A stretch of DNA of 64,000 nucleotides from Escherichia phage T5_ev219. A model generated the notes under the pieces. It was given only the letters and a program-made list of their open reading frames with translations. It was not told where the DNA came from and searched no databases. Within the stretch, counting starts at the first letter, position 1, and each line of letters begins with the position of its first letter. The DNA is taken from the sequence record NC_134263.1; one strand, 5' to 3'. The position numbers and the translations under genes were made by a program. Shown here piece by piece: positions 893 through 35,492 of this stretch.

Positions 893-918
893 ATGAATTT
901 TTAATAAATTTACTTATT

Positions 919-1019: not shown

Positions 1020-1039
1020 TAATAAGTAAACTTTATAGT

Positions 1040-1170
1040 GTCATTCTAGACAGGATTCGAACCTGTTATCACTTGTGCGGACTTACGAGAACCATTCTTT
1101 CACTCGAATCGAACGAGCTTCTGCCCTCGCCAAGTTGGTTTCCCCATCAACCACGCTAGAATGTTTGATT
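1040..1170 (-). ncRNA. tRNA-like element(s), unresolved
   Basis: Canonical T-arm ACAGG-TTCGAAT-CCTGT (rc of 1050-1066) and a second T-arm-like CTCG-AATCGAA-CGAG, but acceptor pairing implies either a 67-nt or a 120-nt molecule; possible Ser-type anticodon loop TTCGATT; not resolved by eye. Confidence 0.25.
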
Positions 1171-1284
1171 GTTTTCAGTGCAAGAGTCCGAGTCTTGGAC
1201 ACGACCGCTTCGCAAGTACATAGGCAGCTTATCATGAGTCAGCACTTCCGAATTGCTAGCTCCGTGTTCTGCACTGAAATTTTA

Positions 1285-1641
1285 TTAGTTTAACCGTAAA
1301 GTATTATCTACTTCACCATTAATTGTTCGGCATTCCTCTGGGATTGCCGGGGTGGCCTTGTATTCCCACCACTCAGCACCATCATATTCCCCACGTTCTA
1401 GCCAAGTTCCATCGGCAAACCATACATTACCATAAAGTAATTGTCCACCGTATCCAGAATCATATTCAAAGTCTAGGTTATTAAGAAAATCCTCAATATC
1501 TTCTTCTGCATAACCTAAAGGTAATACCCAAACTTTTTTATCCCCATAATACCCGAATTCTATTTTAATACACTTAACTTCAGAATTAGTATTTTTTAAG
1601 GCAAGTAACAGCTCTTCTTTAGCATTACGCATATTACGCAT
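1285..1641 (-). CDS. hypothetical protein (start trimmed to MRNMRN... to clear tRNA-Asp)
   Basis: ORF track 1285..1728; the N-terminal 29 codons overlap tRNA-Asp, so internal ATG at 1639-1641 is preferred. Confidence 0.5.
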   Translation of the reverse strand: MRNMRNAKEELLLALKNTNSEVKCIKIEFGYYGDKKVWVLPLGYAEEDIEDFLNNLDFEYDSGYGGQLLYGNVWFADGTWLERGEYDGAEWWEYKATPAIPEECRTINGEVDNTLRLN

Positions 1642-1666
1642 AATATATTCCCATACTGGATTAATT

Positions 1667-1743
1667 TGGCGCGACCGATGGGATTTGAACCCACATTCTC
1701 TCCCGTGACAGGGGAGTACCATTACCAAGCCAGCCCCGGTCGC
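1667..1743 (-). tRNA. tRNA-Asp (anticodon GTC)
   Basis: Acceptor GCGACCG/CGGTCGC, anticodon stem CTCCC/GGGAG with loop CTGTCAC, T-arm GTGGG-TTCAAAT-CCCAT, discriminator G, encoded CCA. Confidence 0.8.
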
Positions 1744-1752
1744 ATAATTTAT

Positions 1753-1938
1753 TTACTCAGCTTTGAGTTTTTCAATAGCTGCATTAAGTTCTTTAAGAAA
1801 CTCTTTTCGTACATTAAGACGATTGAGACTTACTAGTATATCATGTTTAAGTTCTTCGATGTATTTCTTTTCAACTTCAATATTGTTGATAGTGCTATCA
1901 CGATGAACTTCTAACTGTGCAATTACATTCTTGGACAT
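1753..1938 (-). CDS. hypothetical small protein (61 aa)
   Basis: ORF between tRNAs on the transcribed strand; coiled-coil-like composition. Confidence 0.4.
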   Translation of the reverse strand: MSKNVIAQLEVHRDSTINNIEVEKKYIEELKHDILVSLNRLNVRKEFLKELNAAIEKLKAE

Positions 1939-2040
1939 GCTTGTTTCCTCAGTTATTAATGAAAATGGTATCTGTGGCTGAATTCGATGTCAGCAATGAT
2001 AGCTGGTTGGCTACCGGTTTACTTAACTCTACACAGAATT

Positions 2041-2118
2041 TGGCGGTTCCTGCTGGATTCGAACCAGCAACCCTCAACTTAACAAGATGCCGCTCTAACC
2101 AATTAGAGCTAAGGAACC
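2041..2118 (-). tRNA. tRNA-Asn (anticodon GTT), tentative
   Basis: Acceptor GGTTCCT/AGGAACC, T-arm GCTGG-TTCGAAT-CCAGC, encoded CCA, anticodon loop TTGTTAA; anticodon stem has two mismatches. Confidence 0.5.
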
Positions 2119-2613
2119 ATATAAGTCAGAACTAGAGTTAATACGTTCTAGATATTTACTAAGATCCCTAGAATTTATACTAAACCACTCATGTTCTTTT
2201 AAATCTTTGAAATACTGGTGAATTAGTTTTTCACCTTTTCGTTTGTCAAACCAAAAAGACCAATGCTCTAACTTATAATCCCTATAAGGGGAATAAGTCT
2301 GATATTGAGCTAATCTCTCTTTTGGATTTTGACTCATACCTATTTTATACTGATTTTTCCATGCAGGATTACTAATACAGTATACAAAACCTTCAGAAAT
2401 AGGAAGTTTATTTTCCTGCTTAAACTTTATAAAGGAAAGTGCAGCAAGTTTTCTCGAATACATAGTATTTGTATTCTTTTTGGTATTACCATTGGTTCCT
2501 GAAAGATTTATATATTCTTCCATAAATCTCTGGATTAGTTCTGCGGTTATATAGAAGGGCTCATTAGTAACAACGCCTTTCTTTACCAAACTATCAAAAA
2601 CTTTTGTATGCAC
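2095..2613 (-). CDS. T5orf172-domain (GIY-YIG-like) protein
   Basis: Motif GFVYCISNPAWKNQYKIGMSQNPKERLAQYQT matches the T5orf172/MUG113 signature (NP..YKIG....ERL..Y.T); 3-prime end overlaps tRNA by about 24 nt. Confidence 0.65.
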   Translation of the reverse strand: MHTKVFDSLVKKGVVTNEPFYITAELIQRFMEEYINLSGTNGNTKKNTNTMYSRKLAALSFIKFKQENKLPISEGFVYCISNPAWKNQYKIGMSQNPKERLAQYQTYSPYRDYKLEHWSFWFDKRKGEKLIHQYFKDLKEHEWFSINSRDLSKYLERINSSSDLYGSLALIG

Positions 2614-2634
2614 TACTTCTTTCCTTTAGTAATT

Positions 2635-2710
2635 TGGACGACCGCATGAGATTTGAACTCACATAAAAAGGATTTGCAATCCTTCGCCTAAGCCATTCAG
2701 CCAACGGTCG
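2635..2710 (-). tRNA. tRNA-Cys (anticodon GCA)
   Basis: Acceptor CGACCGT/GCGGTCG, anticodon stem AAGGA/TCCTT with loop TTGCAAA, T-arm GTGAG-TTCAAAT-CTCAT, encoded CCA. Confidence 0.75.
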
Positions 2711-2897
2711 ATTTATCTTGTTTTTCGAGATCTTCAAATTCTAAATCATTGAAGTTCCCTAGAGTACGGGAGTAGAACCCGTCTCCTGCGTCATAGCCTG
2801 ATTTGCCACAATCACACATTTTAAATTCACGAAGATGTGTGAAAATATGCTCAGAACCACAACACTTAAATCTAACTAATCGTTTCATTAGTTTCAT
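2697..2897 (-). CDS. small Cys-rich protein (zinc-ribbon-like, 66 aa)
   Basis: CCGSEH...CDCGKSG cysteine pairs; promoter at 2926-2954 immediately upstream. Confidence 0.5.
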   Translation of the reverse strand: MKLMKRLVRFKCCGSEHIFTHLREFKMCDCGKSGYDAGDGFYSRTLGNFNDLEFEDLEKQDKSTVG

Positions 2898-2925
2898 TAG
2901 CTTCTCCAGTTCAATTTATATAATT

Positions 2926-2954
2926 ATTATATAGAACTTTTGGAAACTAAGCAA
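2926..2954 (-). promoter_or_regulatory. sigma70-type early promoter
   Basis: ATTATA 2926-2931, AAGCAA 2949-2954, 17-bp spacer. Confidence 0.55.
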
Positions 2955-3231
2955 CTACATTTTTTAAGAATTTGATGTCTTTCTTCTTCTTATATTTCCA
3001 CGTTAATGGATTCTGTCGATTGTGAACGCTTGAGATCTTCGTCTCGTCAAAGTTCTTCAATATCATGTAATCACAAGATAATTGTTCTAATGGAATGTGA
3101 TCACCGTCAAAAGCATATACATAAGGCTGTTGACTAGCACGATAATGATAGACTTTGTTAATTCTACGTTTCAGCGACTTATCAGCGCAGTAAATAAAGA
3201 AGTTTTCAGGATGCATCAGCATCTCCTTCAA
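2947..3231 (-). CDS. hypothetical protein (94 aa)
   Basis: ORF on transcribed strand between tRNA and promoter. Confidence 0.45.
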   Translation of the reverse strand: MKEMLMHPENFFIYCADKSLKRRINKVYHYRASQQPYVYAFDGDHIPLEQLSCDYMILKNFDETKISSVHNRQNPLTWKYKKKKDIKFLKNVVA

Positions 3232-3233
3232 TT

Positions 3234-3308
3234 TGGTGCACCCTGTTCGTATCGAACGAACCTCTCAAGCTCTTCAGGCAAGCGCTAATCCATCTCAGCT
3301 AAAGGTGC
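3234..3308 (-). tRNA. tRNA-Phe (anticodon GAA), tentative
   Basis: Acceptor GCACCTT/AGGGTGC, T-arm GTTCG-TTCGATA-CGAAC, anticodon loop CTGAAGA, encoded CCA; anticodon stem has two T-T mismatches. Confidence 0.5.
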
Positions 3309-3399
3309 AAATTTTGGCAAACCTACTAGGACTCGAACCTAGACCGTACGGTTTTGGAGACCGACATGCTGTCCAGTAACACTCTAGGAATGCAGAAAT

Positions 3400-3476
3400 T
3401 GGCGTCCTGTGCGGGGATCGAACCCGCAAATCCTACCTTGAAAGGGTAGTGACTTTACCAGTTTGTCTAACAGGAC
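3400..3476 (-). tRNA. tRNA-Glu (anticodon TTC)
   Basis: Acceptor GTCCTGT/ACAGGAC, anticodon stem CTACC/GGTAG with loop CTTTCAA, T-arm GCGGG-TTCGATC-CCCGC, encoded CCA. Confidence 0.8.
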
Positions 3477-3483
3477 TTAAATT

Positions 3484-3574
3484 TGGTGTTGGATGATGGA
3501 GTCGAACCACCCGAGACCCTTCCGAGTCGGCAGATTTACAGTCTGCTTCGCTACCTCTACGATACTAATCCAAC
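3484..3574 (-). tRNA. tRNA-Tyr (anticodon GTA), long variable arm
   Basis: Acceptor GTTGGAT/ATCCAAC, anticodon stem GCAGA/TCTGC with loop CTGTAAA, long variable arm, T-arm GTGG-TTCGACT-CCAT, encoded CCA. Confidence 0.8.
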
Positions 3575-3637
3575 ATATTTAAAAGTATTCAAATACTAGT
3601 TTAAACACTTTTAAATATGTTTCCGAATTAGATAACT

Positions 3638-3666
3638 ATTATACCAAGTTTTAAGGCACTGAGCAA
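3638..3666 (-). promoter_or_regulatory. sigma70-type early promoter driving tRNA-Tyr/Glu cluster
   Basis: ATTATA 3638-3643, GAGCAA 3661-3666, 17-bp spacer; followed at 3655-3695 by a 13-bp perfect inverted repeat. Confidence 0.5.
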
Positions 3667-3702
3667 GTCAAATTTTAAAGAACTTGCTCAGTGCTGTATT
3701 AG

Positions 3703-3978
3703 TTAGTCGAACTTAGGAGTGACAGTTAAGGAGAACGGAAGTTCGAAAACTTCTTCGCCCTCATTACTAACGGTAACTACACGACCTTTAAGTTCAGACA
3801 TTAAAATATCAATATCAGCTTTTGCATCTGGAGCCATGCCAGCTTCAATACATTTAGCTTTAACTTCCGGTAAAAGCTCTACGTTATAGAGATAGAGCCA
3901 CTCAATCTCACCTTCCCAGTCTTCCCAGGATTTGCAGATTGCACTTTCAATACCAGTTGCTACAACACGATTTTGCAT
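3703..3978 (-). CDS. hypothetical protein (91 aa)
   Basis: ORF with promoter at 4009-4038 upstream. Confidence 0.5.
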   Translation of the reverse strand: MQNRVVATGIESAICKSWEDWEGEIEWLYLYNVELLPEVKAKCIEAGMAPDAKADIDILMSELKGRVVTVSNEGEEVFELPFSLTVTPKFD

Positions 3979-4008
3979 TAATTAACTCCTTCATCAATTT
4001 ATATAACT

Positions 4009-4038
4009 ATTATACCAGAAATTTAAAGTAAAAGGCAA
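4009..4038 (-). promoter_or_regulatory. sigma70-type early promoter
   Basis: ATTATA 4009-4014, -35-like AAGGCA 4032-4037. Confidence 0.45.
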
Positions 4039-4068
4039 GTACATTTTTAAAAATTCTGTTTGGAGGAG

Positions 4069-4275
4069 CTAAACTCCAGATTTTTCGGCCAAGTCTAGAC
4101 TAATAAGAGTTATAGCCATAATTGCTGCACCGTGTTCTTTTTCTCCGGTGTTTTTAGCAGAGTCTATAATATCCTTAATCTGTTCGTAATAACTTTTTAC
4201 TTCTTGTTCAATGCCTGCCTCGGCTATCATGCCTTTAGCCATGAATCGTTGCATGGTAATTTCAGGATTAGCCAT
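4069..4275 (-). CDS. hypothetical protein (68 aa)
   Basis: ORF; start ATG overlaps stop of an upstream 55-aa ORF (ATGGCTAA), suggesting translational coupling. Confidence 0.5.
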   Translation of the reverse strand: MANPEITMQRFMAKGMIAEAGIEQEVKSYYEQIKDIIDSAKNTGEKEHGAAIMAITLISLDLAEKSGV

Positions 4276-4437
4276 GTTGTTTCTCCAGTTTCATTTTTAA
4301 TAGTTTACAGATGAAATCAACGTCTTCATCTGTGCCTAAGTCTCTATCCTCAAGGGTCGCCTTGAAGTTTTTCGTCAATTCCATGAGGATGATTTCCCTA
4401 GAACGACGTGTTGGCGGAGGTGGATGTCTATACATCT
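4273..4437 (-). CDS. hypothetical small protein (about 55 aa, below ORF-track cutoff)
   Basis: Hand-translated MYRHPPPPTRRSREIILMELTKNF...; stop overlaps next start. Confidence 0.3.
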
Positions 4438-4450
4438 TATTTCCTTAATT

Positions 4451-4527
4451 TGGTAGGGGTGGTGGGATTCGAACCCACAAAACCTGAATTTTAAGTCCAG
4501 TACCTATGCCAATTCGATTACACCCCC
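4451..4527 (-). tRNA. tRNA with anticodon TAA (Leu-type anticodon, short variable arm), tentative
   Basis: Acceptor GGGGGTG/CACCCCT, anticodon stem CTGGA/TTCAG with loop CTTAAAA, T-arm GTGGG-TTCGAAT-CCCAC, encoded CCA; D-arm poorly paired. Confidence 0.5.
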
Positions 4528-4628
4528 GTGTAATCAGTTTATTAGTTGATACATATTATAGCCTAAAGAAAACCCTACTACTAATCCTACTAACCAACCA
4601 ATATAATAATCTTTTAATTTCACGGGTG

Positions 4629-4814
4629 TCAACCTCGTTCAATATCTAGAGAAATACCACAGGTAGGATTAATGCCTGTGCCTTTGCACGTCGGACAAAC
4701 CCAGATATTACAGAATGTATCCCCTGCTTCTGCATCAGAACTTTCTCCAACTCCTAGACAGTCAGGACAGGCACATTCTTCTAGCTCTTGCTTGAGTTCT
4801 TGAAACTTAGACAT
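4629..4814 (-). CDS. small Cys-rich protein (61 aa, CxxC pairs, zinc-finger-like)
   Basis: CACPDC...CPTCKGTG...C motif pattern. Confidence 0.5.
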   Translation of the reverse strand: MSKFQELKQELEECACPDCLGVGESSDAEAGDTFCNIWVCPTCKGTGINPTCGISLDIERG

Positions 4815-4823
4815 ATAGTTTCC

Positions 4824-5012
4824 TTATTCAATTACTTTTGAGGCTTCAAGGGAGTCGATATAGTGTACGTTTTCTACCATAATCATATAATCTGCCACTT
4901 TATCCATAGCCTGAGCTTCAGAGGTAGCCCTGGCTAACCTATATCCTTTTTTATATTCATCCGGGTATTCCCTATCTGGAATAAACACAACATAAACTAG
5001 GTATAGTTCCAC
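4824..5012 (-). CDS. hypothetical protein (62 aa)
   Basis: ORF directly downstream of tRNA-Met on the transcribed strand. Confidence 0.4.
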   Translation of the reverse strand: MELYLVYVVFIPDREYPDEYKKGYRLARATSEAQAMDKVADYMIMVENVHYIDSLEASKVIE

Positions 5013-5033
5013 TTGTAACCCCTCTAATTAAAC

Positions 5034-5111
5034 TGGTGGCTCCCCGAGGATTCGAACCTACGTACCTTCCGGTTATGAGCCGGGTGCTCATACCATATGA
5101 GCTTGAGAACC
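5034..5111 (-). tRNA. tRNA-Met (anticodon CAT), tentative
   Basis: Acceptor GGTTCTC/GGGAGCC with G-U pairs, anticodon loop CTCATAA flanked by CCGG stems, T-loop TTCGAAT, encoded CCA; T-stem imperfect. Confidence 0.55.
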
Positions 5112-5117
5112 AGAATT

Positions 5118-5207
5118 TGGCGGAAGAAGTGGGAATCGAACCCACAAGGCTATATTTCAAACCGACAGATTAGCAATCTGCTGCAATACCGTTATGCTAT
5201 TCTTCCG
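5118..5207 (-). tRNA. tRNA-Ser (anticodon GCT), long variable arm
   Basis: Acceptor GGAAGAA/TTCTTCC, anticodon stem CAGA/TCTG with loop TTGCTAA, long variable arm, T-arm GTGGG-TTCGATT-CCCAC, encoded CCA. Confidence 0.8.
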
Positions 5208-5221
5208 AATTTATAAGATAT

Positions 5222-5250
5222 ATTATATTAGAAATTTAGCTTCATAGCAA
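5222..5250 (-). promoter_or_regulatory. sigma70-type early promoter driving tRNA-Ser/Met cluster
   Basis: ATTATA 5222-5227, TAGCAA 5245-5250, 17-bp spacer. Confidence 0.55.
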
Positions 5251-5310
5251 GAAAATTTTTCAAGTTTTCGGTAGACATCTCATCCACATCTACAGGAGAA
5301 ACAAATCCAT

Positions 5311-5745
5311 TTAATTGTCTAGCAAATTTTCACCAGCAGGATCATTATCCCCAACAGCTACCAATTTAAAAGGTAATAATTTCAGTTGCTTTAATAACGC
5401 TTTTCCTGGAGAAGAACCCAACATTGCTAGGGCTGGATAACCAGCGTTATGTAACGCAACTGCCTTAAATACAGATTCAGCGATCAATACTACTTTTTCA
5501 TCTCCATTGAGAGTTTCTAGTCCCCATACACACTGGGTAGTAGAATAAGTAAAATATTTAGCTTCAAAGGGACACTTACCATGACCTTTTGGAGCAGAAG
5601 GATTATAAGTTTGATAGCCCCTCAACATCCCAGAGAAGTCATACAACGGGACTGTTAGCCATCCTTCCGGACTTAACCAGCAATGATATTTTTCTGTATC
5701 AAATCCTCTAGATAAGAGGTGCTGTGTTAGCTCATCAACATTCAT
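5311..5745 (-). CDS. stand-alone TOPRIM-domain protein
   Basis: IAESVF (Toprim Glu) and VAVGDNDPAG (DxD) motifs; start moved to MNVDELT because ORF-track start lies upstream of the promoter at 5776-5804; RBS GAGAGAGGAA. Confidence 0.5.
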   Translation of the reverse strand: MNVDELTQHLLSRGFDTEKYHCWLSPEGWLTVPLYDFSGMLRGYQTYNPSAPKGHGKCPFEAKYFTYSTTQCVWGLETLNGDEKVVLIAESVFKAVALHNAGYPALAMLGSSPGKALLKQLKLLPFKLVAVGDNDPAGENLLDN

Positions 5746-5775
5746 ATCTGGTTCCTCTCTCAAATTTATAGATAT

Positions 5776-5804
5776 ATTATACAGAGAATTTAGCATTCAA
5801 GCAA
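5776..5804 (-). promoter_or_regulatory. sigma70-type early promoter
   Basis: ATTATA 5776-5781, AAGCAA 5799-5804, 17-bp spacer, conserved downstream ATAAATTTGAGAGAGG leader. Confidence 0.6.
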
Positions 5805-5920
5805 TCAAATTTTTTAACTTTTTAGAGGAAAATCATAGGGCACTTAAGGGCAGCAGATAAGTGGTGAGGACCAAAATTTGTGACCCCACTAAAAATCCGG
5901 GGGCAATTTTTAAAGACCCT

Positions 5921-5949
5921 TTGACATTTTCGCCGGGGTAGTGTAAAGT
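5921..5949 (+). promoter_or_regulatory. plus-strand sigma70 promoter (TTGACATTTTCGCCG class)
   Basis: TTGACA 5921-5926, 17-bp spacer, TAAAGT -10; the 15-mer TTGACATTTTCGCCG recurs at 34561. Confidence 0.5.
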
Positions 5950-6011
5950 ATATGTTATGGATGAGTGATCAAAGAGACACACATTTTCTATATACTAGGA
6001 GGTGTCAAAAA

Positions 6012-6992
6012 ATGACAGAAGAAGTAGCTAAGAGTCCTGAGACCGTCGCTAGCGTAGCAGCAGAACTGCATCGTCACGAGGAATCAGATAAGAAAAAGTG
6101 GGAGAAGGTCAGAGCCTACGAAGAAGAACATCGTGAACACGATGATAAAGATGAAGAAGATGACGATGATGTACGTTGTCATAAATATGGAAAATATAAA
6201 ATGCAAGAACCAGTAAACGTATTTACTAACGGCTTCCCTGGCATGGGTGCATTCCCAGCTAACGCAAGTGCTTTCGGTGGAGAAGGTATGGGTCTATTCG
6301 GAGCTATCCTAATCGGTGCTCTATTAACCGGCGGATTTGGTGGTTTTGGTGGTTTTGGTCGTGGTGCTGGCGTTGCCGCTGAAGGAACCGCTGTGGACGC
6401 GATCCTTTCTAACCAGGATACTGCAAGTATTCTAGCTGCAATCAATACTACTCGTACAGAAGCTAACCAGGGCACTGGGGCTGTTCTAAGTGCAGTAAAC
6501 GGTGTGGGAGCTGCTCAAGCTGCTAGCACTCAGCAAGTTCTGACTACTATCTACGGTACAGGTGCTAATCTGTCAAACCAGATCTGTGCTGAAACTCGTA
6601 ACGTTATTCAGGGTCAGTTCGATCTTTCTCGTCAGATGGATCAATCTTTCGCTGCTAACCAGATAGCACGTGCTCAAGATAAGTTTGACTCTGCTCAGAT
6701 TGCTTTCCAGCAGTCTATTCAGACCAACAACCAGTTTGCCGCTGTTCAGGCTCAGATGTGCGCTAACCAGAACGCTATCGAACGTCAGCTTGCTGAATGT
6801 TGCTGTGAGCTTCAGACTGCGATCGCTGGTGTAACTACTGCACGTATCCAGGACGAACTGAATGAATGCCGTCTGCGCGAAGCAATCGCTGCAGGTAGCG
6901 GTGCAAATGGTCAGGTAATCAACCAAATCGCTGTAAGTCTTGGTGCTATCACTCAGACTCTGGCTGGTCTGCAGGCTAAACTGCCGGCTTAA
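6012..6992 (+). CDS. hypothetical protein: acidic N-terminus, Gly-rich hydrophobic segment, Q/A/N-rich C-terminal half
   Basis: AGGAGG RBS before ATG 6012; DDKDEEDDDD tract, GMGLFGAILIGALLTGGFGGFGGFG segment; host-like optimised codons (CGT, CTG, GGT). Confidence 0.6.
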   Translation: MTEEVAKSPETVASVAAELHRHEESDKKKWEKVRAYEEEHREHDDKDEEDDDDVRCHKYGKYKMQEPVNVFTNGFPGMGAFPANASAFGGEGMGLFGAILIGALLTGGFGGFGGFGRGAGVAAEGTAVDAILSNQDTASILAAINTTRTEANQGTGAVLSAVNGVGAAQAASTQQVLTTIYGTGANLSNQICAETRNVIQGQFDLSRQMDQSFAANQIARAQDKFDSAQIAFQQSIQTNNQFAAVQAQMCANQNAIERQLAECCCELQTAIAGVTTARIQDELNECRLREAIAAGSGANGQVINQIAVSLGAITQTLAGLQAKLPA

Positions 6993-7013
6993 AATTAAGG
7001 GGAGGAGCCCATT

Positions 7014-7430
7014 ATGAGTAAATATGGTTTTGTGAACAACGGATTTAATCAACCAATGGGCTCCCAGCAGCCCGTTCCGGGTCTGGATAATCCTTACCTA
7101 CAACAGTTGCAACAGCGTTTAGCAGAAGCGCAACAGATGCAGCAACAACTCCAGCAAAACCCTGGAAGTGTGAGTCCTATGCAAATGATGCAGCAAATGA
7201 GCGGGCAGTCGCAAATGCCTCAACAAATGCATCAACAGGTGACTCAGCAGCAAGTTCAGCAGCAAACCCAACAACCGCAGGTTTCTGCGGAAGGACAGGC
7301 AGTACTAGCCCTTTTCGAAGACTTCGCAAAGACAGAGGATGGGAAGCAGCTTGTATCACTTATGGGTAAGTTTAATAGCTTCTGCCAAAGCCAAATTGCA
7401 AAAGCTCAAAATAGCGGTAATAACTCCTAA
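7014..7430 (+). CDS. hypothetical Q-rich protein (138 aa)
   Basis: RBS GGGGAGGAG; extended polyglutamine-rich low-complexity region. Confidence 0.55.
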   Translation: MSKYGFVNNGFNQPMGSQQPVPGLDNPYLQQLQQRLAEAQQMQQQLQQNPGSVSPMQMMQQMSGQSQMPQQMHQQVTQQQVQQQTQQPQVSAEGQAVLALFEDFAKTEDGKQLVSLMGKFNSFCQSQIAKAQNSGNNS

Positions 7431-7439
7431 GGAGGAATT

Positions 7440-7634
7440 ATGTGTTGCAGAAAATCTGTTTCGTGCTGCCCAATGCCTGTAGCACGTTGTTGCTCTCCAG
7501 CAATGTTTACGCAAATACCGGCGTTCAATCCGTTTGCCTTTAAGCCTACTCTTATCCTGCCCCCTAGAGTAGATTTTCAGTCAAGATTGGCCTCCCGTAT
7601 GGGTGGTTGCTGTAACAAGAGTATATGGTTCTAA
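7440..7634 (+). CDS. hypothetical Cys-doublet peptide (64 aa, four CC pairs)
   Basis: RBS AAGGAGGA; MCCRKSVSCC...RCC...GGCC pattern. Confidence 0.5.
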   Translation: MCCRKSVSCCPMPVARCCSPAMFTQIPAFNPFAFKPTLILPPRVDFQSRLASRMGGCCNKSIWF

Positions 7635-7649
7635 GGAACCAAACAATAA

Positions 7650-7686
7650 AGCCCCTAGTCGAAAGACTTAGGGGCTTTTCTTTTAT
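7650..7686 (+). terminator. rho-independent terminator ending the plus-strand module
   Basis: Hairpin AGCCCCTA-gtcgaaagac-TTAGGGGCT followed by TTTTCTTTT. Confidence 0.7.
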
Positions 7687-7690
7687 CTTA

Positions 7691-7731
7691 AATACAGAAA
7701 AGCCCTGCGCTCTCCAGGGAACGCAGGGCTT
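7691..7731 (-). terminator. rho-independent terminator for minus-strand SPFH gene
   Basis: Hairpin AAGCCCTGCG...CGCAGGGCTT followed on minus strand by TTTTCTGTATTT. Confidence 0.65.
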
Positions 7732-22649: not shown

Positions 22650-24524
22650 ATGAATCGCAATGAAGAACTAAAGTATAAAGAAATGCAGGCGTTAATTAGA
22701 AACTGCAAAGAGATTATCGAAGGGTCAGCAGATGAAGAGCTGCTGTTTAATAATGCCAATAAACCCTCAGAACGTTTCCCTACACAAAGGGATATGCTTG
22801 CAGGTGAATTGAGTAAGTATCTGATTCTAGAAGAAATGCCAATTCAGATTCGAAATGCTCATATGATTGGGGATATTCATTTCCATGATGCTGATTATGC
22901 TGCATTAGGTATGACTAACTGTTGTCTGGTAGCTTTGGAAGATATGTTGAAGAATGGTATGAAGGTTGGTAATGCTGAAATTAGCACTCCAAACTCTATC
23001 ACTACTGCGGCGGCTATTACTGCTCAGATTATCACTCAGGTTAGCTCCCACCAGTATGGTGGTACTTCTGTAGATCGTCTTGATGAAGTATTGGCTCCTT
23101 ATGTTCGTAAGTCTTATGATAAGAATCATGCGTTTGCAAAACGTTGGACTAAGGATGAAGCCAAAGCATCAGTAATGGCTACTGAGATGACTGAAAAAGA
23201 AGTCTATGATGCTTGTCAGGGTCTAGAGTATGAAATCAATACGATGTTCAACTCTAATGGTCAGAGTCCATTTATTACCTTTGGTTTTGGTCTAGGAACT
23301 TCTTGGGAAGCACGTCTAGTACAGAAAGCAATACTGAAAGTACGTATGGATGGTTTAGGTATCAATAAACGTACAGCTATCTTTCCGAAACTGGTGTTTG
23401 TTCTGCGTGATGGCGTAAATATGAAGCCAGGAGATGTTAATTATGACGTCAAGAAGTTAGCTATGAAATGTACTGCTGAACGTATGTATCCAGATTATAT
23501 CAGCTATGATAAGGTTGTGGAAGTTACTGGGGACTATAAAGTTTCTATGGGCTGCCGTTCATTCCTAGCTGCTACAGAAGATGGTGAAACTGCCGGTCGT
23601 AATAACTTAGGTGTTGTTTCTGTAAACTTGCCTAGAATTGCTATCGAAGCTGAAGGAAATATTGACCTATTCTTTGATTTGCTTGAGCTACGTGTAGATA
23701 CAGCATTAAAAGCGTTGGAGTGGAGAGTTGATCGCTTAAAATACATTCAAGCTAAAGCTGCACCCATCCTCTATATGTCAGGAGCCTTTGGGTTACGCTT
23801 GGAGCCTGATGAATATGTATTCGATCATTTCTATAACCGTGCTTCTGTATCTCTAGGGTATATTGGTTGCCATGAAATGCTACAGTTCATGTTTGGCAAA
23901 GATGTAGACACAATGTCCGAGACCTGCATCAAGTTTGTTCAGCGTGTATTGCAGTACATGCGGGATAGAGTCGATCAGAAGAAGGAAGAAACTAAGTTAG
24001 GTTATAGCCTGTATGCTACACCATCAGAATCCCTATGTGATCGTTTTTGTCGTCTAGACCGTGAATATTTCCCGGAGCATGAAGATATTCTGTCTAAAGG
24101 ATACTACACTAACTCGCACCACCTTGATGTAGAACGCAAAGTTGCTCCCAATGTGAAATTTGATTATGAATCTAATTTTACTCCGATTGCTTCTGGTGGG
24201 TGCATTTCCTATGTAGAACTACCAGATATGAAACGATTCCCAGATGCACTGGAATGGGTTATTAATTATGCTGCTAGTAAAGTTCATTACTTCGGTATTA
24301 ATACTCCAGTGGATTCTTGTAGTAAATGTGGATTCTTAGGTGAAACAATAGCATCCGAAGATGGATTTAAGTGCCCTATCTGTGGTAATCATGACCCCGA
24401 AACTCTTGAAGTAACTCGTCGAGTTTGTGGGTATCTTGGAAATCCGGGTGCTCGTCCATTTAACCCCGGCAAACAGCACGAGGTGATGGGCAGAGTGAAA
24501 CATCAGGATATTCGAGCTAAATAA
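22650..24524 (+). CDS. nrdD: anaerobic ribonucleoside-triphosphate reductase (class III)
   Basis: C-terminal Zn site CSKCG...CPICG and glycyl-radical motif RVCGYLG; RBS GAGAAGGAG. Confidence 0.9.
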   Translation: MNRNEELKYKEMQALIRNCKEIIEGSADEELLFNNANKPSERFPTQRDMLAGELSKYLILEEMPIQIRNAHMIGDIHFHDADYAALGMTNCCLVALEDMLKNGMKVGNAEISTPNSITTAAAITAQIITQVSSHQYGGTSVDRLDEVLAPYVRKSYDKNHAFAKRWTKDEAKASVMATEMTEKEVYDACQGLEYEINTMFNSNGQSPFITFGFGLGTSWEARLVQKAILKVRMDGLGINKRTAIFPKLVFVLRDGVNMKPGDVNYDVKKLAMKCTAERMYPDYISYDKVVEVTGDYKVSMGCRSFLAATEDGETAGRNNLGVVSVNLPRIAIEAEGNIDLFFDLLELRVDTALKALEWRVDRLKYIQAKAAPILYMSGAFGLRLEPDEYVFDHFYNRASVSLGYIGCHEMLQFMFGKDVDTMSETCIKFVQRVLQYMRDRVDQKKEETKLGYSLYATPSESLCDRFCRLDREYFPEHEDILSKGYYTNSHHLDVERKVAPNVKFDYESNFTPIASGGCISYVELPDMKRFPDALEWVINYAASKVHYFGINTPVDSCSKCGFLGETIASEDGFKCPICGNHDPETLEVTRRVCGYLGNPGARPFNPGKQHEVMGRVKHQDIRAK

Positions 24525-24566
24525 GCTAATCAGCCGGGTTGCTAGTCGACCTGGCTTTTATTTTAT

Positions 24567-24595
24567 TTGCTTTCAGCCAAAAATTTATATATAAT
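24567..24595 (+). promoter_or_regulatory. sigma70-type early promoter (plus strand class with ATAAATTTGAGAGGAG leader)
   Basis: TTGCTT 24567-24572, 17-bp spacer, TATAAT 24590-24595. Confidence 0.6.
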
Positions 24596-24623
24596 AGATT
24601 TATAAATTTGAGAGGAGAAAGCT

Positions 24624-24905
24624 ATGAGCGAGTTGCTTCCTAAAGTAGATGTCTCCCATCTTGGAGAGCCTAGTGAAGAACGTAAGGCTCTAGATTGGTT
24701 GGGTGGATTTGATTATCGTCGTGTTGTTGCAACATGGAATGTTAAGAAAGTTAAGAAGTTTCGGGTACATTATGTAGGTAAAGACAAGTGGCTCTGGATT
24801 GATTATGAAGAATCAAAGGGGTCTACTAAGGCTGTGAAAATTTATCGTATGTATGGGTATTATTATGCTCACTGTGACAAGAATGAATTTACAGTACAGA
24901 ACTAA
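24624..24905 (+). CDS. hypothetical protein (93 aa)
   Basis: ORF with RBS GAGAGGAGAAAG. Confidence 0.55.
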   Translation: MSELLPKVDVSHLGEPSEERKALDWLGGFDYRRVVATWNVKKVKKFRVHYVGKDKWLWIDYEESKGSTKAVKIYRMYGYYYAHCDKNEFTVQN

Positions 24906-24914
24906 GGAACAAGA

Positions 24915-25118
24915 ATGAAAAACGTAAAACATCTTAAATATCGCTTAATTTACAACGGACGTATGGAAACAGAAGACCTGGCCCAGTTAGCTATTAATTC
25001 TAATGAGGTTACAGTGCGTGCGCTGGCAATTGAAAAGTTGCGTGCTTCTTATGAAAATCGTGTTATGGAACTAGAGGAGAAACTTTATGGACTTCTTGAA
25101 TCAGAATCTAAAAAGTAA
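24915..25118 (+). CDS. hypothetical protein (67 aa)
   Basis: ORF, RBS AAGGAACAAG. Confidence 0.45.
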   Translation: MKNVKHLKYRLIYNGRMETEDLAQLAINSNEVTVRALAIEKLRASYENRVMELEEKLYGLLESESKK

Positions 25119-25281
25119 TCCAGAAAACATACTTATTGAGCAATGGAACTTTGGTTATAATGCTGGTGTAGCTACTTGTATTGCTAGATTGGATATGCTT
25201 ATTAAGCAAGAAAAGGTGCGTCCGGAGGAAGCAATTTTACTCCGAAATATTATCGAAGGATTTAAGCAAGGAATCGTATAG
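25087..25281 (+). CDS. hypothetical protein (64 aa)
   Basis: ORF overlapping neighbours at both ends. Confidence 0.4.
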   Translation: MDFLNQNLKSNPENILIEQWNFGYNAGVATCIARLDMLIKQEKVRPEEAILLRNIIEGFKQGIV

Positions 25282-26105
25282 TGCGTAGATTAATTATTAT
25301 TAGCGGTGCGGGTTTGAGTGTTGAAAGTGGTGTACGAGCTTTTCGTACTGATACTGCTAGTGGTAAAGCATTGTGGGATGATTATGATCTAGAAGAAGTA
25401 TGTAATATTCATGCCTTTCGTGGTAATTTTTACCATAAAACCCATATGTTTTACAACAAGCGACGTGAAGAGCTAGAAACTGTTGAACCTAACCTTGCGC
25501 ATCTTCGTATTGGTGAGTGGTATAAGAAATATCCGGGTCAAGTAGTAAATTTGACTACTAATGTTGATGACCTTATTGAGCGTGCTGGTGTTCCTCATAA
25601 TGATATTCTCCACATTCATGGATACTTAAAGGAGGTTGTTGTAGCTGATAGCTACAATAGTAGTAATAAACGAATTATTGATGTTGGGTATAACTCTATT
25701 GACCCAGATGATTATAAATGGGCTAAACCTAATGTAATCTTCTTTGGTGAGCATGCTCCAGCGTACGCAGAAATGTACAATATTTTTGATGGTATTACTA
25801 GTCAAGATATGATCGTTGTAGTTGGTTGCTCTAATCAAGTAATTAATTTCTACTGGGAATTATTTCCTGTTCTTAATTTGACTGCTGCTAAACTTATGGT
25901 TGTTAACTACTACGATAGTGCCCTAGCGGCAGAACCAGGCTATCAAGGTATGACTCGTAGTGATATGTACCAGTTGGAAGAACGGGGTATTCCTTACTGG
26001 AGTAAAGGTGCGGTAGATGCTTTCAGTGATCCTGGTTTTATCGCTCGTATAGAAGCTCATCTAGAGGGTAGACCTTATATGCAGGGGGAACAGACATGTC
26101 CATAG
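25281..26105 (+). CDS. Sir2 (sirtuin)-like NAD-binding protein, no zinc ribbon
   Basis: ISGAGLSVESGVRAFR (GAGxS.ESG), TTNVDDLIERAG...HIHGY (catalytic His), NVIFFGE, VVVGCSNQV; GTG start overlapping previous stop. Confidence 0.7.
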   Translation: MRRLIIISGAGLSVESGVRAFRTDTASGKALWDDYDLEEVCNIHAFRGNFYHKTHMFYNKRREELETVEPNLAHLRIGEWYKKYPGQVVNLTTNVDDLIERAGVPHNDILHIHGYLKEVVVADSYNSSNKRIIDVGYNSIDPDDYKWAKPNVIFFGEHAPAYAEMYNIFDGITSQDMIVVVGCSNQVINFYWELFPVLNLTAAKLMVVNYYDSALAAEPGYQGMTRSDMYQLEERGIPYWSKGAVDAFSDPGFIARIEAHLEGRPYMQGEQTCP

Positions 26106-26278
26106 TTAAATCTGTGTATACACATCCAGATGATATATTTGTATGGGCGGATGGTAGTTGGTGCTATCGATGTGAGTTATGGGAAATGGACTATAAATCT
26201 GAGGACTATGGTGTCATATATGTTGATACGGTTGAGTATGATACGTTCTTAGAAAGGGACAAAAATGGAAATAAGTAA
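26096..26278 (+). CDS. hypothetical protein (60 aa)
   Basis: ORF. Confidence 0.4.
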   Translation: MSIVKSVYTHPDDIFVWADGSWCYRCELWEMDYKSEDYGVIYVDTVEYDTFLERDKNGNK

Positions 26279-26771
26279 TACTCCAATTATTTTTCTAGAC
26301 ATTGATGGGGTGCTTAATTCTAGCATCTCCCACCATCATGCACCTGATGATGAAAAGATTTTCTTTGGAAGTGACTGGGTTTTTAAACCGCTTCTCAAGG
26401 CTTTTCAGGACTTTATTCGTCCTTCTCCAATAATGATTGTTGGGGTATCTTCATGGTTCTCTGTCAGGAATGAGATGGAGAACGTTCAGATTATGACCGG
26501 ATTAGATCTTATCGATCGTTTTCTTGGTACAACGGATTTTACTGGTGGTGGGCTATCTAGGGGTAATTCTGTTCTTCGCTTCGTTGAAAAGCATAAGCTC
26601 AAACATTGGTGTGTGCTGGATGATGCTGGTGCTATGATGTATCAGTATCCAACGGTTATAGTCAACGGTAGAACCGGAATAAATCTTCAAGATTTAAGAG
26701 CTGTTAGCTATATGTTAGAATTTAGTCCAGATCTTGAAATGTGTAAAGCCCTACAAAAATTTAAGGTGTAA
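26265..26771 (+). CDS. HAD-superfamily hydrolase (possible nucleotidase/phosphatase)
   Basis: N-terminal HAD motif I IIFLDIDGVLN; WCVLDDAG motif. Confidence 0.6.
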   Translation: MEISNTPIIFLDIDGVLNSSISHHHAPDDEKIFFGSDWVFKPLLKAFQDFIRPSPIMIVGVSSWFSVRNEMENVQIMTGLDLIDRFLGTTDFTGGGLSRGNSVLRFVEKHKLKHWCVLDDAGAMMYQYPTVIVNGRTGINLQDLRAVSYMLEFSPDLEMCKALQKFKV

Positions 26772-26773
26772 AT

Positions 26774-27202
26774 ATGTTCAATAATATACTCTCTAAAGAG
26801 GCTAACCCGATATTGGTTAATTTTTGGCGTACTCTTCCAGCCAACCTGTACAATGAGGCTATTAATGATCTGAAAATATGGTGTGAGAATAATGAAATCT
26901 CCTTTGCTTTTAAGGGTGAGATTGAAGAAGCTCCCTGTATTGGTTTAATTGTGCAGGTAGAGGATGGTCTGGAAGAGATTGTCGGCTGGAAAGAGTTGGA
27001 TGAAATGGGGTTGGTTTTTGCATTAAACTATAAGCTATTTATGCCCAATAAACACCGTATTGTTGTTAATTATAAAACCAGTGAATCTCCTGGTTTTCAA
27101 GTTAATGAACACTACGGTTGGTCTTACTCACCGGAAGAAGTAAATGATGGTATCCAAAAACTTCGTCGTTTTGGTTATCAAATTCCCGGTTTAACTGCCT
27201 AA
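26774..27202 (+). CDS. hypothetical protein, paralog A of tandem pair
   Basis: Shares F.F...PC.G...W.EL...GL..ALN..LF.P...Y.P...L.R.G..IPGL pattern with 27212..27604. Confidence 0.55.
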   Translation: MFNNILSKEANPILVNFWRTLPANLYNEAINDLKIWCENNEISFAFKGEIEEAPCIGLIVQVEDGLEEIVGWKELDEMGLVFALNYKLFMPNKHRIVVNYKTSESPGFQVNEHYGWSYSPEEVNDGIQKLRRFGYQIPGLTA

Positions 27203-27211
27203 GGGGGCACA

Positions 27212-27604
27212 ATGGAACAAGTATATTGGCGTCAGATTGATCCTAGTTTGGTGAAGCGTGCTGAGAAGCTGCTACAACGTTGGTTGGGGGTAAGACAAGC
27301 CTCCTTCACTTTTCCGGAGCAGCAAATAGACGATCCCTGTGTTGGTGTTTTTCTATCAGGCTACGCTGGGGAATGGGAATTGGATTGGAATGAATTGTCT
27401 GCTATAGGTCTAATTGTTGCCCTAAATTTCTCTTTGTTCCATCCACGTGGTTTGGCCATATGTCGTGTGCCTGATGACGGTTGTTCGCCCTATCTTTTAC
27501 AGGTGGAAGATGATATTTGGGAGTACACTCCAGATATTCTCAAAGAAGCCAAAGAACAATTAAACCGTGTTGGGATCTATGTTCCGGGGCTAAATGATAA
27601 ATGA
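27212..27604 (+). CDS. hypothetical protein, paralog B of tandem pair
   Basis: See paralog A; RBS AAGGGGG. Confidence 0.55.
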   Translation: MEQVYWRQIDPSLVKRAEKLLQRWLGVRQASFTFPEQQIDDPCVGVFLSGYAGEWELDWNELSAIGLIVALNFSLFHPRGLAICRVPDDGCSPYLLQVEDDIWEYTPDILKEAKEQLNRVGIYVPGLNDK

Positions 27605-27627: not shown

Positions 27628-27654
27628 ACCGAGTCATTTTGGCTCGGTTTTCTC
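27628..27654 (+). terminator. rho-independent terminator
   Basis: Hairpin ACCGAG-tcattttgg-CTCGGT followed by TTTTCTC. Confidence 0.65.
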
Positions 27655-33538: not shown

Positions 33539-34510
33539 ATGACTAATGTAAAAGAATTTATTAAACGCTGTCAAGAAGCATATTATCAGGGTATGTCTTT
33601 AATCTCTGATGAGGAGTATGATTGCCTGGTAAAACGCTTCCCGTTAGAAGAAGAGATCGGGCCTAGGGGTGATATTCCACATCTGTATCGTATGTATTCT
33701 TTACAGAAAGTTTACTATAACCGTGGAGATAAATCACCATTCAATCCTTTAGGTCAGGTGGAAACCGATAAGTTAGATGGTTGTGCAATTTCTCTGCTAT
33801 ATATTAATGGCGAATTTGTTCAAGCATTAACCCGTGGTAATGGTATTCTGGGGAATGATGTCACAAGCAACGTAAGATTGCTGAACATTCCTAAAAAGAT
33901 TTCCCAAAAAGTACCTACTCAAATCACTGGTGAAGTTCTAATTACAAAAGAAGTAGAAAATAAACGTAACTTTGCCTCTGGTGCTATTAACCTCAAAGAT
34001 AGTGATGCTTTCGTACAACGTATTGGAGAAGGTGGTTTAATCTTCGTTGCATACGGTATCCAGTGTTCTGCTGAATCTGTAGGTATTACAGAAGCATATT
34101 TAAAAGATATGCTTTGGCTGGAGAATGAGAACTTCTTAACAGTTGTTAATGTGCGTTCCTTCTTTAAATGGATTCCGACGGACGGTAAAGTTGTTCGTAT
34201 TAATGACAACAACAAATTCTTCCGTGAAGGCTGGACTAATAAATTCCCTCGTGGAGCATTCGCCATTAAAGAGGATGAAGAAGGCGAGATTACAACTCTT
34301 ACTAAAGTTGAATGGCAGGTAGGGGCTTCTGGTAAAGTAACTCCAGTCGGTTATTTTGAACCAGTAATTATTGATGATGCTACAATTGTTAAAGCGACTC
34401 TTAATAACGTTGATTATATTAACTCTCTTGATCTAGAGATCGGTTGCCAGATTCGAGTGATTCGTGCTGGTGGTGTAATCCCGTGCATAGTAGAGCGAGT
34501 ATACGATTAA
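33539..34510 (+). CDS. ligA: NAD-dependent DNA ligase, adenylation/OB part (subunit A of split ligase)
   Basis: LigA N-terminal Ia-like region and adenylation motif KLDG (ETDKLDGCAISLLY); no Zn-finger/HhH/BRCT, which are in the next ORF. Confidence 0.8.
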   Translation: MTNVKEFIKRCQEAYYQGMSLISDEEYDCLVKRFPLEEEIGPRGDIPHLYRMYSLQKVYYNRGDKSPFNPLGQVETDKLDGCAISLLYINGEFVQALTRGNGILGNDVTSNVRLLNIPKKISQKVPTQITGEVLITKEVENKRNFASGAINLKDSDAFVQRIGEGGLIFVAYGIQCSAESVGITEAYLKDMLWLENENFLTVVNVRSFFKWIPTDGKVVRINDNNKFFREGWTNKFPRGAFAIKEDEEGEITTLTKVEWQVGASGKVTPVGYFEPVIIDDATIVKATLNNVDYINSLDLEIGCQIRVIRAGGVIPCIVERVYD

Positions 34511-34682: not shown

Positions 34683-34712
34683 ATTTATATAAATTGATAA
34701 GGAAGAAATTTG

Positions 34713-35492
34713 ATGAAAATCGAAATTCCAACACAATGTCCCTCTTGTGGTTCTAAGCTAGATCTTGTCAACGGACAATTATTCTGTCGTAATAAGTCCA
34801 ACTGTCCAGCGCAATCAAGTAAGTTAATTGAGAACTTCTGTTCAAAAATGAAGTTAAAGGGTTTTGGCCCAAAAACTATTGAGAAGCTGGAGCTGACGAA
34901 GATTTCAGAACTATTTTACCTAACCGAAGAAGATTTGGTTAGAGCCGTGGGTAGCAAGGTTGCCGCTAAGTTAATTAGCGAATTAAATACTAAAGTTCGC
35001 GGAGACATTGACTTTGGTTCAGTTCTCGGTTCTTTAGGAATCCCTCTAATCGGAGAGGTTGCAGCAAAGAAATTATCCCAAAATTGCACTAGCTTCCACG
35101 ATGTGAAGGCTGACGGCAAGGCTGGAGAAAACTATAAAGCCTGGCTAAATTCCCCACAGGGCAAGGATGTTATCGAATTACCGTGGAAATTCACAACTGG
35201 TATTAAAGGTGCTAAAGCTGAGGTCATCATCACTGATGGTCTAGTAGCCCAACCAAACGGAATAACGGTATGTATTACCGGATCTTTGCAAGATTTTGCA
35301 AATAGAACGGATGCAACAAACTATTTAGAAGGTCTAGGATATACGGTTAAGAAATCCGTTACCAAAGACGTCAAATACCTAATCTGTGAGGATGAATCTA
35401 AGCGTTCTTCCTCATCTTATAAGAAAGCCGAAACGAATGGGATAGAAATCCTGTCGATTAAAGAACTATTGGAGAAAAATAATAATGTCTAA
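34713..35492 (+). CDS. ligB: NAD-dependent DNA ligase C-terminal part (Zn finger, HhH, BRCT; subunit B)
   Basis: CPSCGSKL...C..C Zn finger, helix-hairpin-helix GFGPKTIEKL / LGIPLIGEVAAKKL, BRCT-like ITVCITGSL. Confidence 0.75.
   Translation: MKIEIPTQCPSCGSKLDLVNGQLFCRNKSNCPAQSSKLIENFCSKMKLKGFGPKTIEKLELTKISELFYLTEEDLVRAVGSKVAAKLISELNTKVRGDIDFGSVLGSLGIPLIGEVAAKKLSQNCTSFHDVKADGKAGENYKAWLNSPQGKDVIELPWKFTTGIKGAKAEVIITDGLVAQPNGITVCITGSLQDFANRTDATNYLEGLGYTVKKSVTKDVKYLICEDESKRSSSSYKKAETNGIEILSIKELLEKNNNV

Follow-up and report, generated by a model that had tools for sequence, protein, structure and literature searches.

What does a sirtuin without a zinc-binding module do for a bacteriophage, and what does a small phosphatase encoded close by have to do with it? 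These questions are raised by Escherichia phage T5_ev219 (sequence record NC_134263.1), from which we analysed a stretch of 64,000 nucleotides, called the window below. The genome is that of a T5-like phage (Demerecviridae), and positions 24560-27604 comprise a complete early operon, whose eight genes correspond to T5.100-T5.107 of phage T5. Two products of this operon are considered here, a Sir2-like protein and a HAD-type phosphatase. An earlier note, based on a reading of the letters alone, had likened the former to the Sir2 domains of bacterial defence systems that degrade nicotinamide adenine dinucleotide (NAD), and had suggested that the pair manipulates NAD or ADP-ribose metabolism. Our analysis points to a classical sirtuin with an apparently intact active site, which together with the phosphatase forms a dispensable accessory module. 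For this module we weakly favour, as a possible rather than a probable function, the healing of RNA ends.

The Sir2 open reading frame (ORF) matched the Pfam SIR2 profile (PF02146) with an E-value of 9e-24 and a score of 84.8 bits against a cut-off of 24, over profile positions 1-178 of 180; at E 1 this was its sole Pfam match, and SIR2_2 was not found. The motifs that the earlier note had named can all be read in the translation, namely GAGLSVESG at residues 9-17, H113-G114 and F155-G-E157. Its remark that the CxxC zinc module is lacking was also borne out. The protein has only three cysteines (C41, C183 and C273), none of which lies between H113 and E157, the stretch that holds the Cys ligands in CobB; the four-cysteine zinc ribbon of sirtuins is absent. 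Among solved structures the best sequence relative is E. coli CobB (1S5P, E 2.4e-17), followed by Sir2-Af1/Af2 and SIRT5, with the C-terminal 90 residues of the phage protein not aligning with CobB. An AlphaFold (AF2) model made with 57 homologs reached a predicted local distance difference test score (pLDDT) of 89.2. A Foldseek search with this model again gave CobB 1S5P as the best match (E 5.7e-18, template modelling score 0.85 on the target), together with SIRT5 and Sir2-Af1, and no defence-system SIR2 appeared among the top 50 matches. The GAGxS, Y-x-x-R, N/D, HG and FGE motifs are common to CobB, SIRT5 and the window protein. Of these, the class III Y-x-x-R motif (Y58 and R61) is invariant and aligns with FYNARR of CobB; in SIRT5 and CobB it has a role in the recognition of acidic acyl groups. 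The ORF thus encodes a classical sirtuin, the closest characterised relatives of which are of the CobB/SIRT5 type (class III).

It is not an ordinary CobB, because its scores against the NCBIfam CobB equivalog models (87-97 bits) fall far under their cut-offs of 243-320. In contrast to CobB and SIRT5, the window protein has no zinc ligands. It reads TTND for TQND, so that the Gln of the sirtuin signature TQN(I/V)D is replaced, and the VYP substrate loop of CobB reads VIN(F). In CobB this loop helps to hold the peptide substrate. A three-stranded small module is still predicted at the usual place of the ribbon (pLDDT 89-97), the conserved residues G136, Y137, W147, K149 and P150 taking the place of the Cys ligands, and in the model it looks like a zinc ribbon that has turned zinc-free.

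Relatives of the protein were found by tblastn in 976 phage records. They belong to T5-like phages, to ~140-kb myoviruses of Escherichia, Klebsiella and Erwinia and, more distantly, to Vibrio schizoT4-like and jumbo phages. Within the close set, defined as the 120 nearest 90%-identity clusters of homologs, the residues GAGS, F21-R22, N94, D96, H113-G114, FGE and S184 are invariant, the zinc module contains between zero and two Cys, and the position of the TQND Gln is taken by Thr in 117 clusters (TTND) and by Ser in the other 3 (STND). The catalytic residues, and with them an NAD-using sirtuin core, are therefore intact. We also considered a decaying relic and rejected it, since the catalytic residues are invariant across all 120 clusters. 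In a wider set of 150 representatives at the 50%-identity level, Thr was present in 33 and Gln in 14 of the proteins with fewer than three Cys, and Thr in 10 and Gln in 80 of those with at least three. Zinc loss thus goes with the change from Gln to Thr (odds ratio 18.9, p 2.7e-12, uncorrected for shared ancestry); because of the missing correction the association marks a clade and cannot be taken as proof of co-adaptation. The Sir2/CobB proteins of Vibrio schizoT4-like phages and KVP40 (~40% identity over 76% of the query) are reported to lack the zinc ligand as well, but they constitute another sub-clade, which keeps the Pro of an I-N-P loop and is encoded beside topoisomerase II. Domain fusions that might reveal the substrate were sought in 10 longer relatives (297-528 amino acids), and none was informative: they contain the SIR2 domain only, apart from one that also has WG repeats. 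The homologs exist in two forms distinguished by an insertion of ~25 residues that follows residue 50 and belongs to the helical small domain (alignment columns 52-77). Salmonella phage STG2 shares ~50% identity with the window in Sir2 and ~90% in the HAD protein. The sequences suggest that Sir2 alleles have been exchanged in mosaic fashion.

The HAD ORF matched the HAD_SAK_2 profile (PF18143; E 1.8e-20, 74.2 bits against a cut-off of 27.5), the name of which derives, according to Pfam, from the occurrence of this family in RNA repair proteins. Relatives are present in 470 phage records. All four HAD motifs (D12-x-D14-G-V, S62-S63, R99 and D119-D120) were invariant in 17 homologs with identities down to 37%. 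The model of the protein (pLDDT 94.4) has no cap domain, and its closest folds include the phosphoprotein phosphatases MDP-1, SCP1, UBLCP1 and Fcp1; KdsC/YrbI and GmhB were also matched. The ORF accordingly encodes an intact capless Mg-dependent phosphatase of the HAD_SAK_2 family, and the fold does not reveal its substrate. Like the sirtuin, the enzyme is small and looks soluble. PHROG 18062, which carries the label 'Sir2', matched the HAD protein over its entire C-terminal half (residues 77-168, E 1.2e-57) and the Sir2 protein weakly. This label may be the reason that several phage records call the HAD gene 'Sir2 (NAD-dependent deacetylase)'.

The HAD gene does lie downstream of nrdD and clustered with Sir2, as the earlier note had stated, although the two are not strictly adjacent: one ORF of 60 amino acids separates them. 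To see which genes travel together we used 60 IMG/VR loci that a search with the Sir2 alignment had retrieved, 31 of which have the nrdD/DUF7415 context of T5-like phages. In 28 of these 31 the HAD gene followed Sir2 on the downstream side, at a distance of no more than 512 bp. In the T5-like Erwinia phage KEY, which has neither nrdD nor DUF7415, the pair is kept in inverted order, with HAD_SAK_2 upstream, followed by a gene for 118 amino acids and SIR2. The opposite situation was observed in phage DT57C, where nrdD and both DUF7415 genes are kept and where Sir2 and HAD have been destroyed by two deletions. What is left (locus L007, 2980-3252) is an in-frame fusion of 90 amino acids joining Sir2 residues ~170-213 to HAD residues ~134-168; the fusion ORF is annotated 'Sir2 (defective)'. 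DT57C is a natural double knockout, and the close relative DT571/2 carries the HAD gene. Because DT57C has lost both genes, Sir2 and HAD are dispensable for growth; they were also lost together. DUF7415 proteins were also tried as members of the module and were rejected, since in KEY, DT57C and Klebsiella phages they co-vary with nrdD and not with Sir2 and HAD; homologs of the second DUF7415 protein of the operon adjoin nrdD or nrdG in T4-like Klebsiella phages. The DUF7415 proteins may have to do with anaerobic ribonucleotide reductase, and not with NAD. Sir2 and HAD, in contrast, make up a dispensable accessory module that is gained and lost in a coupled manner and is distinct from the flanking nrdD and DUF7415 genes.

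Different partners surround the sirtuin gene in the ~140-kb phages. Orthologs with ~60% identity in Raoultella phage Ro1, Erwinia phage pEa_SNUABM_55 and a 133-kb Logan contig are part of a same-strand array that encodes Metallophos, RNA_lig_T4_1 (T4-type RNA ligase 1), cREC, an AAA_33 kinase, SIR2 and an ATP-dependent ligase. This array recurs in 11-13 of the 60 IMG/VR loci, and in 8 of the 60, from ~140-kb phages, Sir2 abuts the ATP-dependent ligase gene at a distance of 0-6 bp. An Adps/Namat-like pair (Pribosyl_synth and NAPRTase) is found 1.7-6.6 kb away on the opposite strand in 9 of the 60, and NADAR also occurs near Sir2 relatives of this phage group. The sirtuin has two independent contexts: in the T5-like phages it is accompanied by HAD_SAK_2, and in the ~140-kb phages by Rnl1, kinase, cREC and phosphoesterase.

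One of these partner families is encoded in the window itself. The protein is the ortholog of T5.084 and has a cyclic-phosphate-processing receiver domain (cREC, PF20274), the family that adjoins Sir2 in the ~140-kb phages. It was the only match, weak in tblastn and then confirmed by Pfam, when partner proteins were searched against the window and positions 1-74.9 kb of phage BF23; Rnl1, a PNK-like kinase, the ATP-dependent ligase, NADAR and Adps were negative in the same search. A Namat-like gene was not among the queries, but the BF23 annotation names none and no T5-like IMG/VR locus has one within 10 kb of Sir2. The cREC gene is kept in DT57C, and T5-like records annotate the T5.084 homologs as hypothetical. 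Its product is a possible distant partner of the Sir2-HAD pair. The window also contains 14 tRNA genes. Known anticodon nucleases target several of the tRNAs encoded there, namely Lys(UUU), Asn, Asp, Tyr, Glu and Arg(UCU).

A model that could accommodate these contexts was put forward by Iyer, Burroughs, Anantharaman and Aravind in 2022 (PMC9503650, section 3.7.3), who described a distinct phage sirtuin clade with three types of neighbourhood. Their type 3, a sirtuin with a Swiss-army-knife HAD, typified by Tequintavirus SP15, is the same locus as the pair in the window, and their type 2 (Rnl1, cREC, kinase and Sir2) was reproduced independently here. They proposed that the sirtuin removes 2'-phosphates from RNA in the manner of KptA, in an NAD-dependent RNA repair, and that opening of the cyclic phosphate, or else processing of the ADP-ribose phosphate formed, would fall to the partner phosphoesterases (PMC9503650). 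We favour this model, if weakly, because RNA-terminus enzymes are the only thing common to both contexts of the sirtuin, because the T5-like genome also carries cREC, and because the clade has changed exactly those parts of a sirtuin that hold the peptide.

According to the RNA-end-healing model, the module would heal RNA, probably tRNA, that has been cut by host nucleases leaving 2',3'-cyclic phosphate ends. A cyclic-phosphate esterase, for which the cREC protein is the candidate, would open the cyclic phosphate. The sirtuin would then use NAD+ to transfer ADP-ribose onto the remaining 2'-phosphate, releasing ADP-ribose cyclic phosphate and nicotinamide, which would be the chemistry of Tpt1/KptA carried out on another fold. 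Finally, the HAD enzyme would remove the remaining terminal phosphate or dephosphorylate the ADP-ribose-phosphate by-product. Such chemistry seems plausible by analogy, given that in both sirtuins and Tpt1 an oxygen nucleophile is joined to C1'' of NAD+, after which the ribose 2''-OH comes into play. The analogy would be functional only, as Tpt1/KptA have the ADP-ribosyltransferase (ART) fold and the window protein has the unrelated Rossmann fold of sirtuins; the parallels are the proposed NAD+-dependent ADP-ribosyl transfer to an oxygen nucleophile with subsequent attack by the ribose 2''-OH, and the association with RNA ligase and kinase genes. In its most specific version, the zinc-free TTND sirtuin would be an NAD+-dependent remover of RNA 2'-phosphates and the first nucleic-acid sirtuin, restoring tRNAs cut by anticodon nucleases together with cREC and HAD. 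We regard this version as tentative and rather doubtful.

Several observations weigh against the RNA-end-healing model. We know of no sirtuin for which a phosphate nucleophile or RNA has been established as a substrate, and the support for RNA repair is gene context throughout. Because the tblastn searches of the window and of BF23 positions 1-74.9 kb found no RNA ligase or polynucleotide kinase, the pathway would need a ligase of the host. The retained Y58-x-x-R61 and FGE are typical of acyl-lysine recognition. The best fold matches of the HAD protein are MDP-1 and carboxy-terminal domain phosphatases and not PNKP. Coupling of the two genes, frequent as it is, is not obligatory, because three T5-like loci (L063, L066 and L067) carry Sir2 without HAD. 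No recognisable partner was present in ~13 of the 60 Sir2 loci, and two of these gave no informative context, having only an AAA_28 kinase (L059) and a C5 DNA methylase (L048), respectively. Lastly, the HAD_SAK_2 homolog of Serratia phage vB_SmaM-ChuuTotoro lacks an adjacent Sir2 and immediately precedes an Adps/Namat-like pair, a context which suggests that HAD might act on a soluble ADP-ribose phosphate.

The main rival holds that the sirtuin is an NAD+-dependent lysine deacylase of the CobB/SIRT5 type, probably for acidic acyl groups (succinyl, malonyl), that, at an early stage of infection, removes such groups from proteins of the host or the phage, while HAD serves as a second 'eraser' on phosphoproteins. 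Ligases and other adenylate-forming enzymes, through their catalytic lysine, would be a speculative target. To our knowledge nearly all characterised PF02146 enzymes are deacylases, and this base rate counts for the rival, as do the best sequence and fold matches (CobB, SIRT5 and Sir2-Af1), the invariant Y-x-x-R motif aligned with that of CobB, the conservation of FGE and of all NAD-contact residues, the phosphoprotein phosphatases among the closest HAD folds, and the ATP-dependent ligase gene that abuts Sir2 in the ~140-kb phages. However, no CobB equivalog cut-off was reached, the VYP loop and the TQND Gln have been replaced across the clade and the zinc ligands lost, and deacylation leaves unexplained why genes for RNA ligase, kinase, cREC and HAD_SAK_2 are repeatedly found with Sir2. 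On balance we consider a deacylase unlikely, though a serious contender.

The earlier note had preferred a defence-like enzyme, an NADase or ADP-ribosyltransferase that would manipulate the NAD+ pool, modify host proteins or counter NAD-depleting defences. The catalytic core is indeed intact and NAD-binding, the ~140-kb phage relatives lie close to an Adps/Namat-like pair and to NADAR, and one partner-less locus has the AAA_28 kinase as neighbour. The defence SIR2 NADases (ThsA, DSR1/2, SIR2-HerA and SIR2-pAgo) are of the same superfamily and bind NAD+, but the window protein gave no profile match to them and keeps deacylase substrate-binding features. A PADLOC scan at E 0.01 with Sir2, HAD and both DUF7415 proteins returned no matches, which leads us to reject a kinship with defence systems. 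Unlike the defence enzymes, the window protein stands alone at 274 amino acids, with small ORFs, HAD and DUF7415 as neighbours and no fused or adjacent sensor or partner (SLOG, HerA, pAgo or a large C-terminal domain). The likeness to defence NADases is thus unsupported, because the fold, profile and motif evidence points to the CobB/SIRT5 type. Zinc loss alone does not indicate NADase function, because it has already been reported for sirtuins of Vibrio phages (PMC5107563). Nor did a role in countering NAD-depleting defences find support: consumption of NAD+ does not counter its depletion, and in the window and BF23 positions 1-74.9 kb neither an Adps-like gene nor NADAR was found by tblastn, the queries of which did not include a Namat-like gene. 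The NAD-dependent DNA ligase that the earlier note saw elsewhere in the window is real, but as a hint of NAD manipulation it fails, being the ordinary split ligase of T5-like phages that adds nothing to the argument; moreover, a phage that relies on such a ligase gains nothing obvious from NAD+ depletion. We judge this explanation to be very unlikely. What stands of the proposed link to NAD and ADP-ribose metabolism is that the function is likely NAD-consuming, with ADP-ribose derivatives as products.

It is similarly improbable, in our estimation, that Sir2 and HAD form a small-molecule route that handles soluble NAD-derived or ADP-ribose-phosphate compounds and no macromolecule, for example ADP-ribose-1''-phosphate or ADP-ribose cyclic phosphate from host reactions of the RES or tRNA-splicing type, or immune signals. 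Sugar phosphates are the substrates of some capless HADs, KdsC and GmhB among them, and both KdsC/YrbI and GmhB were among the fold matches of the HAD protein. The arrangement in ChuuTotoro (locus L006, 7001-10217), in which the HAD_SAK_2 homolog overlaps the start of the Pribosyl_synth gene and the NAPRTase gene follows (a NARP1-type pair), also speaks for this route, but it is a single context example. A phage phosphatase that feeds NARP1 is known from Osterman et al. (2026), where a Macro-domain enzyme turns ADP-ribose-1''-phosphate into ADP-ribose (bioRxiv 10.64898/2026.01.28.702374). That case sets a precedent for the action of phage phosphatases on ADP-ribose phosphates, although the enzyme is of a different family from HAD_SAK_2, and the ChuuTotoro protein could be a HAD-type counterpart of this NARP1-AP phosphatase. 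For the window neither NARP1 nor NARP2 (Adps with Namat, or NampT with Nmnat) was recognised: tblastn of the window and of BF23 positions 1-74.9 kb found no Adps-like homolog, the Namat-like gene not having been queried. In addition, no known sirtuin chemistry fits a small-molecule route, and HAD_SAK_2 is named for RNA repair proteins.

The layout of the operon and the positions of all features are given in Table 1. We consider the operon complete because a promoter and flanking terminators were found at its ends. The gene order is that of T5, and the annotations of BF23 and T5 give an identical layout: nrdD, a terminator, a promoter, eight genes on the + strand (T5.100-T5.107), a terminator and the gene for an origin-binding protein. 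The promoter was missed by a consensus scan, as its -35 hexamer matches at only 3 of 6 positions. DNA of the 3-kb region had matches in 442 phage records, including T5, BF23 and many T5-like phages of Salmonella and Escherichia, the best being Salmonella phage GEC_vB_N3 (95% identity).

Table 1. Features of the window that are discussed in the text
Feature	Position	Strand	Evidence and remarks
nrdD	22650-24524		upstream of operon
Intrinsic terminator closing the nrdD transcript	24532-24556	+	stem-loop and T-run; T5 and BF23 also annotate a terminator there
Early operon promoter	24567-24595	+	TTGCTT, 17-nt spacer, TATAAT, read from the sequence; T5/BF23 promoter annotated at the equivalent site
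ORF, 93 amino acids	24624-24905	+	phrog_7953, function unknown; without Pfam match
ORF, 67 amino acids	24915-25118	+	phrog_5236, function unknown
ORF, 64 amino acids	25087-25281	+	phrog_5827, function unknown; stop codon overlaps Sir2 start codon
Zinc-free sirtuin, 274 amino acids	25281-26105	+	T5.102 ortholog, 94.5% identity to T5; GTG start; Pfam SIR2
ORF, 60 amino acids	26096-26278	+	phrog_5116, function unknown; overlaps Sir2 and HAD genes
Capless HAD phosphatase, HAD_SAK_2 family, 168 amino acids	26265-26771	+	T5.105 ortholog
DUF7415 protein, two repeats	26774-27202	+	T5.106 ortholog; Pfam PF24187, E 5.6e-33
Second DUF7415 protein	27212-27604	+	T5.107 ortholog; Pfam PF24187, E 1.3e-30
Intrinsic terminator at operon end	27628-27648	+	T5 and BF23 annotate a terminator at the same site
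cREC protein, 105 amino acids	10783-11100	-	T5.084 ortholog; PF20274, E 1.4e-14, 54.9 bits against a cut-off of 27
14 tRNA genes	239-9386	-	
Ser(ACU) tRNA	9313-9386		unusual call
ORF	5952-6992	+	without Pfam match
ORF	7014-7430	+	without Pfam match
SPFH/Band_7 gene	7755-8702	-	
ORF, 147 amino acids	9646-10089	-	YqeY/GatB-like match under Pfam cut-off (25.4 bits against 27)
NAD-dependent DNA ligase, first ORF	33539-34510	+	adenylation and OB domains
NAD-dependent DNA ligase, second ORF	34710-35492	+	HhH and BRCT domains

A few further observations concern other parts of the window. The two ORFs of the NAD-dependent ligase are separated by a gap of 200 bp and correspond to ligA and ligB in the BF23 annotation. 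In the segment 5952-8702, which comprises two ORFs and the SPFH/Band_7 gene, the GC content is 0.47 at positions 6001-8000 and ~0.39 elsewhere; in the Ro1 and pEa_SNUABM_55 loci, too, Band_7 genes occur, at distances from Sir2 within ~5 kb. The DT57C homolog (T5.081) of the ORF with the YqeY/GatB-like match is annotated 'tRNA amidotransferase', and the product of this ORF may be a tRNA-binding protein.

Much of this subject is already in the literature, namely the Sir2-like gene, its zinc loss, the HAD partner and the RNA-repair hypothesis. T5.102 is annotated as a 'putative Sir2-like protein' in the T5 genome record, a designation that goes back to the sequencing of that genome. Skliros et al. 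(2016) described Sir2/CobB proteins of Vibrio phages and KVP40 without the zinc ligand, and mentioned T5 (PMC5107563). An experimental study of any phage sirtuin was not found in the papers searched. Compared with T5.102, T5.105 and their orthologs in Demerecviridae, the window shows nothing of substance that is different and represents another isolate of the same gene set. Beyond Iyer et al. (2022), the present analysis adds the clade signature of Gln-to-Thr and VYP-to-VIN changes, the natural loss of both genes in DT57C, the finding that DUF7415 does not belong with the pair, the occurrence of cREC elsewhere in the T5-like genome, and the HAD gene beside the Adps/Namat-like pair in ChuuTotoro.

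Sirtuins are known to be protein deacylases or, in bacterial immunity, destroyers of NAD+. The phage clade, with nearly a thousand sequenced copies, combines an apparently intact active site with the absence of zinc, an altered substrate loop and neighbours that process RNA ends. If its substrate is not a protein, the clade would represent a third kind of sirtuin chemistry. If the most specific version of the RNA-end-healing model is true, T5-like phages would possess an RNA-healing pathway of three enzymes that borrows its ligase and that has gone unrecognised experimentally.

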